Shown: piece after piece, positions 7,257 through 64,000 of the stretch | Layout of the letters: every line of letters starts with the position of its first letter | How positions within the stretch are numbered: position 1 is the first letter of the stretch | NCBI GenBank assembly: GCA_965221865.1 | Contig: OZ244918.1 | Span: forward strand, 91,259-155,258 | Source: Candidatus Poriferisocius sp. | GTDB taxonomy: Bacteria > Actinomycetota > Acidimicrobiia > Acidimicrobiales > Bin134 | DNA length: 64,000 nucleotides | Direction: 5' to 3' | Position numbers and translations under genes: made by a program | The notes under the pieces: model-generated | What the model was told of the DNA's origin: nothing | Databases searched by the model: none | The model's input: the letters and a program-made list of their open reading frames with translations, nothing else

Positions 7257-8198
7257 ATGAAAGCAGTTGGTGTAAACACCTTTGGCGGGCCTGAGGCTCT
7301 AGAAATAGTAGATTTACCTACTCCTAACGCAGGTCCCGGTGAAGTGCGAATCCGTGTTCATGCCGCAGCAGTGAGCCCTACCGACACTCATGTGCGTGCA
7401 GGCAGCCGTGCTAGCCGCCAAGCCGAGGAAAGCCCACCGCCTTATGTGCCTGGTATGGATGCAGCTGGAGTGCTAGACCAAATTGGGGCGGGAACCCAAA
7501 CTGATTTGTCAGTAGGTGATCATGTGATGGCCGTTGTGGTTCCTAAGGGCCAACACGGCGCCTACTCGGAATATATAGTTCTACCAGCAGAGTCGGTAGC
7601 TAAAATACCTCAGGGAGCTTCGTTTGCCGAAGCTAGCACCTTACCTATGAACGGCTTAACCGCTAAGTACAGTTTAGAGCAGCTGGCATTGGTGCCAGGT
7701 CAAACGCTAGCCGTTACCGGTGCTGCGGGCTGCTACGGCGGCTATATGGTGGAGTTAGGAAAAGCCGCCGGCTTACAAGTAATTGCCGATGCCTCAGAAG
7801 CCGACGAAGAACTAGTTGCTGCTTTAGGTGCCGATGTTGTGGTGCGCCGTGGTGATGATGTTGCCGAGCGAATCCGCCAACATTTCCCGCAAGGAACAGA
7901 CGGACTAGCTGATGGCTCTGTACAAATGGACATGTTGGTAGCAGCAGTGCGAGACGGTGGGAGCTTTGCTTCGGTACGCGGTTGGACAGGCAACGCAGAG
8001 CGCAACATCACTTTTCATAAAACATGGGTGTTTGAGTATGCCAAAGAACAAGCTCAGCTTGACCGCTTACGCCAACAAGTCGAACAAGGGCAAGTAACGC
8101 TACGAGTAGCTGGTACGGTTCCCGCCGAGAACGCAGCCGAAGCTCACCGCCGTCTAGAAGCAGGCAGCACGCGTGGCCGCTGGGTGATTGAGTTTTAG
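7257..8198 (+). CDS. NADP-dependent oxidoreductase (MDR/quinone reductase family)
   Basis: GGPEAL..PGPGEVRIRVHAA, PGMDAAG and VTGAAGCYG nucleotide-binding motif. Confidence 0.9.
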   Translation: MKAVGVNTFGGPEALEIVDLPTPNAGPGEVRIRVHAAAVSPTDTHVRAGSRASRQAEESPPPYVPGMDAAGVLDQIGAGTQTDLSVGDHVMAVVVPKGQHGAYSEYIVLPAESVAKIPQGASFAEASTLPMNGLTAKYSLEQLALVPGQTLAVTGAAGCYGGYMVELGKAAGLQVIADASEADEELVAALGADVVVRRGDDVAERIRQHFPQGTDGLADGSVQMDMLVAAVRDGGSFASVRGWTGNAERNITFHKTWVFEYAKEQAQLDRLRQQVEQGQVTLRVAGTVPAENAAEAHRRLEAGSTRGRWVIEF

Positions 8199-9569
8199 CT
8201 AAGCGCTTGCCACAGCGGGCACTTCAGACAAGGCTTTGGCGATGGCCTCATCGCTGAGGTCTAGGTCTACTACTGAACCCGACAGGTAGCTTTCATAGGA
8301 AGCTAAATCTAAGTGTCCATGGCCGCACATAGCGGTGAGAATCACTTTACTTTCACCAGATTCTTTGCAGGCCAGAGCTTCACGTATAGCCGCAGCTATG
8401 GCATGGGTTGGTTCTGGTGCGGGCACGATTCCCTCAGTACGGGCAAACTGAAGTCCCGCAGCAAAGCACTCTTGTTGTGAGATTGCCACTGCCTCAACCA
8501 AGCCTTGTTCATATATGTGCGACACAAGCGGTGACATACCGTGATAGCGCAGTCCTCCAGCATGAATCGGATCGGGAATAAAGCTGTGCCCAAGAGTGTG
8601 CATTTTCAACAAGGGGGTCATCTGCGCGGTGTCTCCAAAATCGTAGCGGTACTCACCTTTAGTCAATGTTGGACAAGCCGCAGGTTCTACACAGCGGATC
8701 ACCGGGTTCATACGCCCAGTCAGCTTCTCCCTCAAAAACGGAAACGAAAGCCCACCAAAGTTGGAACCACCACCAGTGCAACCTACAAGCACATCAGGGG
8801 TTTCCTCTACCATTGCTAGTTGCTTGAGAGCTTCCTCACCAATAATGGTCTGGTGCAGCAAAACGTGGTTTAAAACGCTGCCTAGCGCGTAACGAGCATT
8901 CGGGTCTACCGCAGCTTCTGCTACAGCCTCACTAATAGCAATACCTAAAGAGCCATTGTGGTTGGGGTTTTCGGCTAACAGCTTACGACCGTAGGTGGTC
9001 ACCTCTGAGGGGCTGGAATACACTTTGGCACCCCAAACCTCCATCATGGTTTTGCGATATGGTTTTTGACGATAGGAAGCTGCTACCTGCCATACCTCAC
9101 AAGCCATGTTGTATTGAGCACAAGCAAAAGCCAGCGCGCTCCCCCATTGGCCTGCTCCTGTTTCTGTGGTAAGCCTTTGAACCCCCTCTTGATGGTTGTA
9201 ATATGCTTGCGGCACAGCAGTGTTAGGTTTATGCGATCCAGCAGGACTAACGCCTTCATACTTGTAAAAGATTTTGGCGGGAGTATCTAAGGCTTGTTCT
9301 AGGCGTCGCGCTCTAAAAAGCGGACTGGGCCTCCACAGCCGCAAAACATCTAAAACACCACCGGGAATATCTACATATGATTCGGGGGTAACCTCCTGCA
9401 TGATGAGTTCCATTGGAAAAAGCGGTGCTAAATCATCTGGCCCCACAGGCGCAAGCGTGCCAGGATGTAAAGGTGGGGGTGGCGGGGAAGGTAGGTCGCT
9501 AATAACGTTGTACCATTGAGTGGGTAACTCAGAATCAGGTAATACGACACGATAGTAATCGTCAACCAT
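8199..9569 (-). CDS. trpB2: TrpB-like PLP-dependent enzyme (tryptophan synthase beta, TrpB2 type)
   Basis: [11 protein letters not shown] lysine, [17 protein letters not shown] and HAGGLRYHG; AAGGAGA RBS upstream. Confidence 0.92.
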
Positions 9570-9642
9570 GTGCTATCTCCTTGTGTATTGAATAATTCAC
9601 AATGTAGGTATGCTGCATACAACCTAATGTTTCTAGCTGTGA

Positions 9643-9915
9643 TTATGAACCGTAGACAGAAACACCTTGAGCATGCTTGGCAGCAAACAGCTCTAGCACC
9701 TCACCTGGATTAGCGTGGCGGCCGGTTACATGTTTGGAGTAAAGCATCTCCCCGTTTACCTCCACATCAAAGATGCCTGAACCACCTGTTTGCAAGGTTA
9801 AGTTCTCAATGATGTGCTGATAGTTCTTGAGCAGGTCATTAGCAGTGCTCACGGCACGCTCTGAATAGTCTCAAGGTACGCAATAGGTGATTTGAATTGT
9901 TTGCTTTTGGTTCAT
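9643..9915 (-). CDS. Rdx family (SelT/SelW/SelH) selenoprotein, 90 aa, Sec at codon 15
   Basis: ATG at 9915 overlaps the upstream stop (ATGA). The frame reads MNQKQTIQITYCVP-TGA(9873-9871)-DYSERAVSTANDLL..GGSGIFDVEVNGEMLYSK, i.e. CxxU plus the Rdx GxFEV motif. The ORF track calls only the part after the TGA. Confidence 0.88.
9836..9864 (-). promoter_or_regulatory. Candidate bacterial SECIS hairpin
   Basis: mRNA after the UGA reads GACUAU UCA G AGC GUGC [CGUGA] GCAC U GCU AA UGA. This is a stem-loop with a bulged U and a G-containing apical loop; the upper stem begins about 11 nt after the UGA. Confidence 0.6.
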
Positions 9916-10871
9916 ATGGGCATATTAGCGCTTACACGCTCAAATTGGCGATGCAACCAATGCCGTTGATCGGCGAGATATCGTGTAGATACCTCAGCAG
10001 GGCGGAACAAATGGGCTCCATGTGGTGCCCCTGGGTAAACGTGCAGTTCTGTGGGAACGCCTGCTTCGTAAAGCCGCATGGCGTAGATGATGGACTCATC
10101 GCGAAACCCGTCGGCACCTCCCACACACACATAAGCCTCTGGCAGGCCACTAAGATCATCAACTCTAGCTACAGCTGCTATGGGGGGCACATTATCGGTA
10201 CCGTAAAGATCGCCTAAATAGCACTTCCAACCAAAAGTGTTGGAAGCCTTAGACCAAATCAGCAAATTATCGAGTTGGCTAGAAGAGGTAATTTGTCGAT
10301 CGTCAAGCATCGGGCATTCCAAGAGCTGAAACTGTATTGGAATCTCACCCCTATCGCGTGCCAAAAGCGCTACGGCCGCGCATAAGCCGCCCCCAGCACT
10401 AGAGCCAGCTATGCCGATCTTGTTGGGGTCTATGCCTAGTTCTCTAGCATTGTTATAAATCCACTTCAGACCGCTATAACAATCTTCTAGTGGGCCGGGG
10501 TAAGAGGTTTCTGGGGCAAGACGGTACTCCACAGATACCCCTACTATTGCGAACTTCTTACACCAGCTATCAAACTTATGATCGTCCATGTCACAGCTTC
10601 CCACCACGTAACCGCCACCGTGAATGGAATACAAACAACCCAAACCAGATGCTGCGGTTTCTGTATCAAACCCTAGCGGTCGATGCACCCTAACGGTTAC
10701 TTGCGTGGTTTCATCCACCACATAGTCGGTGCGTTCCACTTCGTCGCTTAGCTTTTTCTTAATCATTGGCATCGTTCTGCGATATTCATGCAAAGATTCA
10801 AGAGTAAGTTCAGGAAAATGCATCCTTTTCGCAAGCTCGGCGATTTCGGGCAACAAACTCACCGTTGCCAT
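9912..10871 (-). CDS. Alpha/beta hydrolase, HSL-family esterase
   Basis: HGGG oxyanion motif, YRLAPE, GSSAGG nucleophile and C-terminal HG. Confidence 0.92.
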   Translation of the reverse strand: MATVSLLPEIAELAKRMHFPELTLESLHEYRRTMPMIKKKLSDEVERTDYVVDETTQVTVRVHRPLGFDTETAASGLGCLYSIHGGGYVVGSCDMDDHKFDSWCKKFAIVGVSVEYRLAPETSYPGPLEDCYSGLKWIYNNARELGIDPNKIGIAGSSAGGGLCAAVALLARDRGEIPIQFQLLECPMLDDRQITSSSQLDNLLIWSKASNTFGWKCYLGDLYGTDNVPPIAAVARVDDLSGLPEAYVCVGGADGFRDESIIYAMRLYEAGVPTELHVYPGAPHGAHLFRPAEVSTRYLADQRHWLHRQFERVSANMPI

Positions 10872-10938
10872 AACGGTTCCCTCCTTGATGTGTCAAACAT
10901 GTCCTGTGGCAGCGCAAAATATTTTATGGTGGCAAATC

Positions 10939-12378
10939 CTACTCGGTGCTACTAAGCCCCAAGGTTGCTGATGCTGCTAGCTCCACCAGGTTATCTGTCT
11001 CACAATCCATGGTTCCTACAGTTGCAGGATAACGCCGGATCCAACCACTTGTTGTAGGTGTGACCAGCATAAAACAAGGTGACGGGAGCCCTTCAGCAGG
11101 ATTGGTCAAGCCATGTAAACCTTGCCCATCCCATTCGGTGATTGTACGCGCAGCTTCAATTACCAACTCGCGTGTCAACCCGCCACCGCTTAGGAACCTC
11201 GCACGGTTCACCGCCTCCTCAAACAATAAAGCTGATGCCCAACTAGATAACCCCACTAAGTTCAGTTCAGCATCTGCGTCTACCTGTTCGCGCAGCGACA
11301 AAACGTAGCGAACCAACTCAACATTGTCACCTGCTTCTTCGAAAGGTAACAAGTTGATCGCCACCCACACATTTTGACCCAACTCCCCTACCTGTTCTGC
11401 CCACTTTTGGGAGTAACAGTTAGCCCCGCAATGAAAAAAAAACTCTGCGGTTGCTAAATCAGTTTCTAGATTGTCAACAACATCTTCAGCTTGTGCAGCA
11501 CTGCTAAGACGCTCCCAAGCTTCTAGGAGTTGCAGCATACGTTCGCCGTCTGCTGTCCAAGTAATAGCGCGCGCGCCAATGCGTTGCAGCTCTTGGGCTA
11601 GCTCATCATAATCTTGATCTACCGCATCAGCAGTAGCACGATATAAGTAGTTATAACCAGCACTAGTGCCGGCTTCAATTTCTCGCTGAGCCTGATAAAA
11701 AGCCACCGGCATGTCCACTACCACGGTTGCTACCGCACTTGCAGACTCTGCAAACAACTCGCTTAGGTGTTGAGCGGGGCCAGCGTTAGCAATGCTGTTG
11801 GATGTGGGATTAGACACAAAGGTCACCGCGGACTCTCGCCGGTCAGGATTTAGTGCAGCTGCTGGAAAATCAGGTAAACGACAAGACTCAGCGTTGAGTA
11901 AATCCACCCCATTGCCATCTTGCAGTGCATACGAACCGACTAAAGCAAAAATATCACTTTCACACGCTCTACTAACAGCATCTGCGTGGCTAAAAACATT
12001 GGAATCAAACAACACCACCTCTACATTGCGACCACCTAAACCGCCTCTTTCGTTAACCGACCCGGCCCATGCTTTCATCGCAAACCATGCAGCCTCGCTG
12101 CCAGCAGTTACCGCATTGTTGTCGGTTATATCGGCTATGACCCCGAGGCGCATCACCTCTTGACTTAGCCCTGGAGTTGCAGGCTTAGCTATCTTATTAG
12201 GAGGTATATCTGCACGCTCAACTGCGTTAGGCGTAGCAGTTACCAACTCTGGCGATGACACGACTGGGCCTTGCAGGTTGGGCTTTTGACAAGCCCCACC
12301 CAATAACAAAAAGCCGAGTGCCACCGCCAGAGCGGGTCGTAAACTTCGTGCAGTAGATTGCAAACTACGCGTTTGCAT
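10939..12378 (-). CDS. ABC transporter substrate-binding lipoprotein (branched-chain amino acid-binding fold)
   Basis: Lipobox LLGGAC, RLGVIAD and VNERGGLGGRNVEVVLFD; no permease genes adjacent. Confidence 0.8.
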   Translation of the reverse strand: MQTRSLQSTARSLRPALAVALGFLLLGGACQKPNLQGPVVSSPELVTATPNAVERADIPPNKIAKPATPGLSQEVMRLGVIADITDNNAVTAGSEAAWFAMKAWAGSVNERGGLGGRNVEVVLFDSNVFSHADAVSRACESDIFALVGSYALQDGNGVDLLNAESCRLPDFPAAALNPDRRESAVTFVSNPTSNSIANAGPAQHLSELFAESASAVATVVVDMPVAFYQAQREIEAGTSAGYNYLYRATADAVDQDYDELAQELQRIGARAITWTADGERMLQLLEAWERLSSAAQAEDVVDNLETDLATAEFFFHCGANCYSQKWAEQVGELGQNVWVAINLLPFEEAGDNVELVRYVLSLREQVDADAELNLVGLSSWASALLFEEAVNRARFLSGGGLTRELVIEAARTITEWDGQGLHGLTNPAEGLPSPCFMLVTPTTSGWIRRYPATVGTMDCETDNLVELAASATLGLSSTE

Positions 12379-63939: not shown

Positions 63940-64000
63940 TGCCCGGAGAGGGACTCGAACCCTCACTCCCTTTCGAGAACCGGATTTTGAGTCCGGCGCG
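63940..64000 (-). tRNA. tRNA-Leu(CAA), 5' end outside the window
   Basis: Reverse complement is ..CGCGCCGGA-CTCAAAA-TCCGG-TTCTCGAAAGGGAGT-GAGGGTTCGAGTCCCTC-TCCGGGCA, with a long variable arm; CCA is not encoded. Confidence 0.93.

Follow-up and report, generated by a model that had tools for sequence, protein, structure and literature searches.

Here we analysed a 64,000-nucleotide stretch of contig OZ244918.1 from Candidatus Poriferisocius sp., referred to below as the window, and in it a short minus-strand gene at positions 9643 to 9915. The gene lies between one for an esterase and one for a TrpB-like enzyme, and its frame contains a single in-frame TGA. An initial annotation, made from the DNA letters alone, had proposed that this codon hides a selenoprotein of the Rdx/SelW family. 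The parts of the gene are listed here by window position.

9643..9915, minus strand: predicted SelW-like (Rdx-family) selenoprotein gene, 90 codons plus a TAA stop at 9645-9643, with a single in-frame UGA
9913..9915, minus strand: ATG start, overlapping the esterase TGA stop at 9914-9912
9880..9882, minus strand: TGC, Cys12, first residue of the CxxU redox motif
9871..9873, minus strand: TGA, predicted selenocysteine 15 (translation with TGA as U), conserved in relatives
9850..9852, minus strand: GTG, Val22, start of the called 69-residue open reading frame, within the apical loop of the predicted selenocysteine insertion sequence

The reading frame and its start

With TGA translated as selenocysteine (Sec, U), the minus strand from 9915 to 9643 reads MNQKQTIQITYCVPU-DYSERAVSTAN... 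and continues to 90 residues, with the motif C12-V-P-U15. The initial annotation had described an ATG that overlaps the esterase stop and opens a frame through the TGA into a called 69-residue open reading frame (ORF), and on the minus strand this is exact. The esterase ORF ends ...AAT ATG CCC ATA TGA, so that in the ATGA at 9915-9912 its stop shares two bases with the downstream ATG. The frame opens three codons before this ATG, which is the sole start codon upstream of the UGA. The called ORF (9643..9852), which starts at a GTG, is the part of this frame that lies downstream of the TGA. This is the one Rdx gene in the genome. In assemblies from the four sequencing runs examined, a single contig (run X10) covered part of the region 9600-10000, spanning 9600-9784, and among 12 runs from 6 studies found to carry matching DNA, none was an RNA run.

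Protein family and predicted fold

The readthrough product matches the Pfam Rdx family (PF10262) with 61.7 bits against a cut-off of 22.6, placing residues 6-76 on profile positions 1-71 of 74. The 69-residue ORF alone scores 34.5 bits, still above the cut-off, and covers only profile positions 20-71. The nearly full-length match of the longer product bears out the family assignment made earlier. The product also exceeds the cut-off of 34.2 bits for TIGR02174 (CXXU_selWTH), with a score of 45.5 bits.

An AlphaFold2 model based on an alignment of 26 sequences has a mean pLDDT of 95.1, with strands at residues 5-11, 36-43, 49-53 and 56-60 and helices at 18-35 and 72-81. The predicted fold is thioredoxin-like, with the order beta1-alpha1-beta2-beta3-beta4-alpha2, and the C-V-P-U motif sits in the loop joining strand 5-11 to helix 18-35. 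The best Foldseek matches to the model are six bacterial SelW-related proteins (3DEX, 2OKA, 2OBK, 2FA8, 2P0G and 2OJL; TM 0.75-0.81, rmsd 1.3-1.5 Å), followed by MIEN1, mouse SelW (2NPB) and then thioredoxins. A sequence search of the PDB returned seven Rdx-family chains: 2LJK, 3DEX, 2OJL, 2FA8, 2OKA, 2OBK and 2P0G. In the two alignments inspected, the YCEPC of 2LJK and the YCTQC of 3DEX align with the window motif, and a Cys stands opposite Sec15. The product is most likely a small, putative thiol-dependent oxidoreductase.

The Cys-form structures SAV_2001 (3DEX), Atu0228 (2FA8), 2OKA, 2OBK, 2OJL and 2P0G share the predicted fold of the window protein and match it in the sequence search with E-values of 7e-6 to 2e-3. 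They differ from it in sequence (20-29% identity) and, judging from 3DEX as the single alignment inspected for this group, in having Cys where the window has Sec. Mammalian selenoprotein W (2NPB) and MIEN1/C17orf37 (2LJK) have the same Rdx fold and are more distant, with TM 0.64-0.67 and 15-22% identity. In eukaryotic Sec decoding the selenocysteine insertion sequence (SECIS) lies in the 3'-UTR rather than in a coding-region hairpin.

The 69-residue ORF from the GTG at 9852 could itself be the real product, with the upstream 21 codons as an untranslated leader; it corresponds to the public gene calls, it passes the Pfam cut-off by itself, and 57 of 58 database relatives are likewise 62-74 residues long. 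However, such a protein would have neither strand 1 nor any of the redox motif. In every relative the protein sequence encoded by the upstream codons is conserved, and the remaining database relative, P0003, is full length at 88 residues, 71% identical, and has a Cys form of the motif (CAPC). The GTG is indeed invariant in all 78 distinct sequences compared below, and its position in the SECIS loop explains this. We consider the 69-residue product extremely unlikely.

The 90-residue reading also accounts for the form of the public calls, which end at the UGA, resume at the GTG in the SECIS loop and thereby lose codons 1-21. The four short database relatives that were read all start beyond the U position; three of them have an initial M, and one (74 residues) starts in mid-sequence. 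Among sources that give these relatives a name, NCBI has “hypothetical protein” and JGI has “selenoprotein W-related” or “predicted Rdx family selenoprotein”. With the gene cut to about 69 residues in public calls, neither the redox motif nor the Sec trait can be seen in those proteomes.

Conservation of the UGA

We compared the product with 61 genomes, of which 39 matched: the window's own, 34 of the 36 from the same genus, and 4 of the 24 from other families of the order. An in-frame TGA is present in all 39. Where the codon itself was read, it was TGA in 30 of 30 loci and in 55 of 55 further loci from named public genomes. The latter were confirmed from 181 pattern matches in records titled Acidimicrobiia, Ilumatobacteraceae, Candidatus Poriferisocius and similar; the scan patterns were derived from the query, and some of the named records are the same genomes as those of the first set (G handles). 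None of the 55 named loci has Cys at the U codon. The position therefore holds what had been expected of homologues at residue 15, which is TGA in every locus read and Cys in P0003, 2LJK and 3DEX.

A TGA is a stop by default, and the gene could be a pseudogene in which the codon for Cys15 has mutated to TGA and the Rdx protein is no longer made. One relative, L037 (with a second occurrence in named record L067), has an extra TAA before the motif and may be dead. This explanation is in practice refuted by the other 84 loci read, which come from several families of the order and all have the same TGA. In addition, the protein sequence is conserved on both sides of the TGA, with 19 invariant columns in the 26-sequence alignment, and the Sec machinery described below is complete. 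The probability left to a pseudogene is negligible.

A search for SelA gave matches in 35 of the 36 same-genus genomes and in 16 of the 25 genera sampled within the order. Among the relatives that carry the TGA-bearing gene it is present in 37 of 38, including all four outside the genus; the exception is a 93% complete genome. The Sec trait had been described as patchy in actinobacteria. This is fair for the phylum, but the count within this order is 16 of 25 genera.

In a sample of 301 genomes of the phylum, each at least 90% complete, an Rdx match was found in 68, and in 57 of these the match contains an in-frame TGA (counted at any position within the match). Excluding nine genomes flagged as unpublished, the count is 50 of 59 Rdx-holding genomes among 292. 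The 11 Rdx-holding genomes without an in-frame TGA include the six largest, at 7.5-9.9 Mb. In Table 2 of the GOS ocean survey, SelW-like proteins are the family with the most selenoprotein sequences, with 427 Sec and 56 Cys forms (PMC2398784).

The window gene is an additional member of this common and well-known bacterial selenoprotein family. With bacterial SelW-like proteins (PF10262/TIGR02174) it shares the profile family, CxxU at the junction of strand 1 and helix 1, and small size. Nothing essential differs; the window copy is found in Acidimicrobiia, overlaps an esterase gene, and is shortened in public calls.

The SECIS hairpin

A hairpin follows the UGA in two forms, a short upper stem-loop and an extended structure.

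9841..9860, minus strand: predicted SECIS upper stem-loop, with 5' arm 9860-9854, loop CGUGA 9853-9849, 3' arm 9848-9845 plus 9843-9841, and U9844 bulged
9826..9875, minus strand: predicted extended SECIS structure, in which a lower stem CUUGAG 9875-9870 / CUCAAG 9831-9826 encloses the UGA; -16.1 kcal/mol

In the minimum-free-energy fold, AGCGUGC (9860-9854) pairs with GCAC (9848-9845) and GCU (9843-9841), and an outer pairing joins UCA (9864-9862) to UGA (9838-9836). This fold is identical to the bulged hairpin at 9864-9836 that had been noticed after the TGA. The consensus model for bacterial SECIS elements (bSECIS) in the Fig. 2 legend of PMC13188914 calls for an apical loop of 3-9 nt, a stem of 4-16 bp, a G within the first two positions of the loop, mostly with G or U after it, a spacing of 16-37 nt between UGA and loop, and an energy of at most -7.5 kcal/mol. 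The window hairpin has a 5-nt loop with G-U at loop positions 2-3, a stem of 7 bp (4+3) with one bulge, a loop that starts 17 nt after the UGA, and an energy of -8.5 kcal/mol. As a candidate bacterial SECIS it thus satisfies all four constraints of the published model. The two differ in that the window's bulge is on the 3' side, and in that the loop CGUGA and its closing pairs (GCCGUGAGC) are almost fixed in the window's lineage.

The strongest evidence for a functional hairpin is conservation at silent sites. The 85 loci gave 78 distinct 207-nt sequences, in which GAG19, GCC21 and GTG22 are the sole codons used, with zero synonymous entropy, and AGC23 is used in 99% (entropy 0.10). At other invariant residues with four- or six-fold codon choice (V13, S18, G44, G47, V51 and S60) the codon entropy is 1.45-1.82 bits. 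GTG22 would be invariant because it lies within the SECIS loop. The three apical pairs are formed by every one of the 70 distinct sequences aligned. At pair 30:40, 64 of them have C-G, 4 (the window included) have U-A and 2 have U-G, and none is unpaired; the U-A cases combine a silent CGC to CGU change with an Ala to Thr change on the opposite arm. The position of the lower stem CUUGAG/CUCAAG enclosing the UGA is not conserved among relatives. Support for the hairpin comes from this conservation and from the fit to the bSECIS model, not from energy or covariation, which are taken up below.

Selenocysteine machinery and other UGA genes

The genome is a single 2.93-Mb contig, 95% complete. It contains a tRNA-Sec gene (67.1 bits against a cut-off of 47; anticodon tca by ARAGORN), selA (332 bits), and an adjoining full-length selB of 601 residues that is matched at both the N- and C-terminal ends of its models. 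It also contains selD (357 bits), which has one in-frame TGA of its own, in ...SHGAGUAGK... (L017:1531-1533) in the N-terminal Gly-rich loop. A very stable double hairpin follows this TGA (-28.1 kcal/mol, z -4.15). We take the U position to be the catalytic Cys site of E. coli SelD. All four components that the initial annotation had suggested looking for are therefore present, each above its family cut-off. Together, the complete machinery, the conserved UGA and the SECIS-type hairpin uphold the proposal that this organism recodes UGA as Sec, as far as gene content and sequence can indicate.

The same evidence bears on whether a suppressor or near-cognate tRNA might instead insert a standard residue (Trp, Cys or Gly) at the UGA. 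The residue inserted is not discernible from sequence data, which leaves room for this. However, TGA is still an ordinary stop here: it ends the esterase gene 42 nt upstream and is thus not generally reassigned. The genome has a dedicated tRNA-Sec with selA, selB and selD, the codon occupies the catalytic Cys/Sec position of a family named for CxxU, and a SECIS-type hairpin stands at the right distance. Decoding as an ordinary amino acid is very unlikely.

A genome-wide scan for coding-like sequence flanking TGA was noisy and does not amount to an inventory, since its thresholds dropped both the SelW-like gene and selD. Among the 14 candidates listed, two were protein-like, and both were confirmed by Pfam.

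G000:C1:82774-83709 (L104), about 7.5 kb before the window start: Redoxin/AhpC-TSA-type protein of 311 residues with WAPHUPTC; the Pfam domain spans the TGA
G000:C1:1746161-1746511 (L105), minus strand: ArsC-family protein of 116 residues with IYHNPGU; the Pfam ArsC domain spans the TGA

The Redoxin-type protein has a signal- or lipoprotein-like N-terminus and a long Pro/Thr-rich linker, and its gene is probably a second thiol-oxidoreductase selenoprotein gene. L105 is a probable ArsC-like selenoprotein gene. In selD and in the Redoxin-like and ArsC-like genes, the UGA is followed 14-24 nt later by a hairpin whose first two loop positions include a G. By these predictions the genome is that of a Sec user with at least four UGA-containing genes (SelW-like, selD, Redoxin-like and ArsC-like). 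To selenoprotein specialists the SelW-like gene would by itself be unsurprising.

Two further kinds of TGA context were seen in the scan. At G000:C1:500918-501742 there are three tandem frames of about 83 codons with in-frame TGA, “...CPU...GTGC” contexts and a downstream hairpin; they resemble spurious frames, or antisense frames, of a repeat. Identical TGA contexts occur in pairs near G000:C1 positions 2744 and 2724428, 932066 and 935603, and 2708395 and 2923890, and suggest repeated elements in the genome.

Proposed decoding and points against it

We regard it as highly probable that 9915-9643 on the minus strand forms a functional gene whose 90-residue product is a SelW-like (Rdx-family) selenoprotein. 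In the proposed mechanism, the ribosome probably reaches the ATG by coupling to esterase termination at the ATGA overlap. The UGA at codon 15 would then be read by Sec-tRNA(Sec) brought by SelB, with SelB anchored to the mRNA by the SECIS hairpin, the CGUGA loop of which starts 17 nt downstream, inside codons E19-A25. In the finished protein, Cys12-Val-Pro-Sec15 most likely cycles between the selenol/thiol and selenenylsulfide forms.

Several observations count against this interpretation, most of them concerning the hairpin. Its energies are just modestly better than those of shuffled sequences: the 29-nt hairpin has z -1.57 (18 of 200 shuffles as good), the 50-nt form z -2.53 (5 of 200), and the 65-nt stretch from the UGA z -0.31. 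Pair 29:41 is unpaired in 19 of the 70 sequences. Lower down the stem, pairing requires one or the other of two registers depending on the relative; when both registers were counted, neither was convincingly better than shuffles. For the bulged structure, 48 of 500 shuffles reached the observed paired share and 81 of 500 the covariation score. This covariation is statistically weak because the hairpin element hardly varies. RNAalifold retains the three apical pairs only, and a search of 9000-11000 against Rfam in E-value mode gave no match. At the protein level, the score against NF041051 (SelTWH_Campy), the closest NCBIfam equivalog, is 66.7 bits and below the cut-off of 88; by its profile matches, the protein is a member of the wider Rdx/SelW-like subfamily, outside that narrow equivalog. 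No Shine-Dalgarno-like sequence is visible before the ATG, and for this reason initiation through the esterase is a step that we infer. Expression of the protein and the presence of selenium in it are likewise predictions.

Neighbouring genes

The selenoprotein gene is flanked on the same strand by two larger genes.

9912..10871, minus strand: hormone-sensitive-lipase (HSL)-type alpha/beta hydrolase of 319 residues (Pfam Abhydrolase_3, 186.6 bits), upstream of the selenoprotein gene
8199..9569, minus strand: TrpB-like PLP enzyme (TrpB2) of 456 residues (NF009057, 719.7 bits; TIGR01415, 618.5 bits; both above cut-offs), 73 nt after the selenoprotein stop

All NCBIfam HSL-type models scored below their cut-offs against the upstream esterase. 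No promoter-like site was found in 8000-11200, and no terminator-like site between the esterase, selenoprotein and trpB2 genes. Co-transcription of the three genes is plausible here because no such site separates them.

Among the 84 other loci, an esterase is directly upstream in two (L020 and L084) and stands at a distance of 1 kb in L054 and of 2.9 kb in L066; trpB2 is downstream in one (L020). L020 is the closest relative and keeps the same three genes. We determined the identity of neighbours elsewhere with Pfam at two representative loci. In L055, genes for a nitroreductase and a cytochrome P450 flank the selenoprotein gene. In L062 (971-4951), which represents Ilumatobacteraceae-type loci, the SelW-like gene follows rpsD-rpoA-rplQ and precedes PhoU-like/PHO4 genes. 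With the esterase adjacent in only 2 of 84 and trpB2 in 1 of 84, the esterase link characterizes this species together with its nearest relative rather than the family.

The selenoprotein had been described as co-translated with an HSL esterase directly upstream of trpB2. The four-base overlap is real and suggests translational coupling of the selenoprotein to the esterase in this genome, but the partnership is not a conserved one. A stronger version, in which selenoprotein, esterase and TrpB2 form a dedicated functional unit with the selenoprotein as, for example, a redox partner, would draw on that overlap, the shared strand, the uninterrupted stretch between the genes and the retention of all three in L020. 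Against it stand the rarity of both neighbours among the other loci and the quite different contexts of L055 and L062, and we find such a unit improbable.

Two-Sec forms in congeners

In many congeners the codon for the partner Cys12 is also TGA, giving the motif Y-U-V-P-U. This is the case in 23 of the 30 loci of the first set (G handles) and in 3 of the 55 named loci.

L023-L041, L044, L045, L047, L048, L055, L056 and L067 (for example L023:1669-1740, minus strand): UxxU loci, in which both motif codons are TGA

In the Rdx gene tree all UxxU loci belong to the same-genus clade, which also holds records titled Candidatus Poriferisocius. By TGA counts, 27 of the 34 matching congeners have two TGAs and 7 have one (for G008, G013, G017, G020, G021, G022 and G025 there is the count only). 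The two UGAs of UxxU genes are 9 nt apart and lie 26 and 17 nt from the loop of the same hairpin top, both within the 16-37 nt range. These genes are orthologous to the window gene and share its SECIS top and downstream protein; the window differs in having TGC at codon 12 and hence one predicted Sec. In the review tables of PMC9312934 and PMC13188914, SELENOW-like proteins are listed as CxxU with one Sec, and UxxU is listed only for Prx-like, mercuric-reductase-like and FmdB-like proteins. In the literature searched, which did not extend to subscription journals, no account of a UxxU SelW-like protein or of the Poriferisocius selenoproteome was found.

At L037:1669-1740 (minus strand), and again in named record L067, a TAA replaces the Tyr codon just before the first TGA of UxxU. 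The copy in that species is probably dead, unless the TAA is a sequencing error.

A SelA tree was used to place the window relative to the two-Sec genomes. It has 40 rows (35 from the genus and 5 outgroups) and omits G020 (no SelA match), G036 (SelA in two pieces), the second G009 copy and all other outgroup genomes. Separation of the outgroups has 100/100 support. Near the base of the genus, the window forms a clade with G005 and G030 (100/100) that is in a polytomy with two other CxxU genomes, and the window falls outside a 30-row clade (support 92/75) that contains all 25 UxxU rows. Because the tree places the window outside this UxxU-rich clade, its CxxU is most simply ancestral, and on this one gene and moderately supported branch it is probably so. 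Reversion of the window from UxxU to CxxU was also considered and is unlikely given the same placement; the Rdx gene tree was without resolution on this point.

We lean slightly towards a fuller account, in which CxxU in the window is ancestral and most congeners turned the partner Cys codon into a second UGA, giving a diselenide-forming UxxU protein with both UGAs served by one SECIS. If true, the genus offers natural CxxU/UxxU orthologue pairs in which the benefit of the second Sec and the reach of one bacterial SECIS could be tested. The two-Sec form is the more notable phenomenon, and the window gene is its single-Sec counterpart.

Other features of the window

At the far end of the window, at approximately 63941-64000 (G000:C1:155199-155281, minus strand), the tRNA-Sec model gives a match of 41.8 bits, which is below the cut-off and clipped by the window end. 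This match is probably an ordinary long-arm tRNA.

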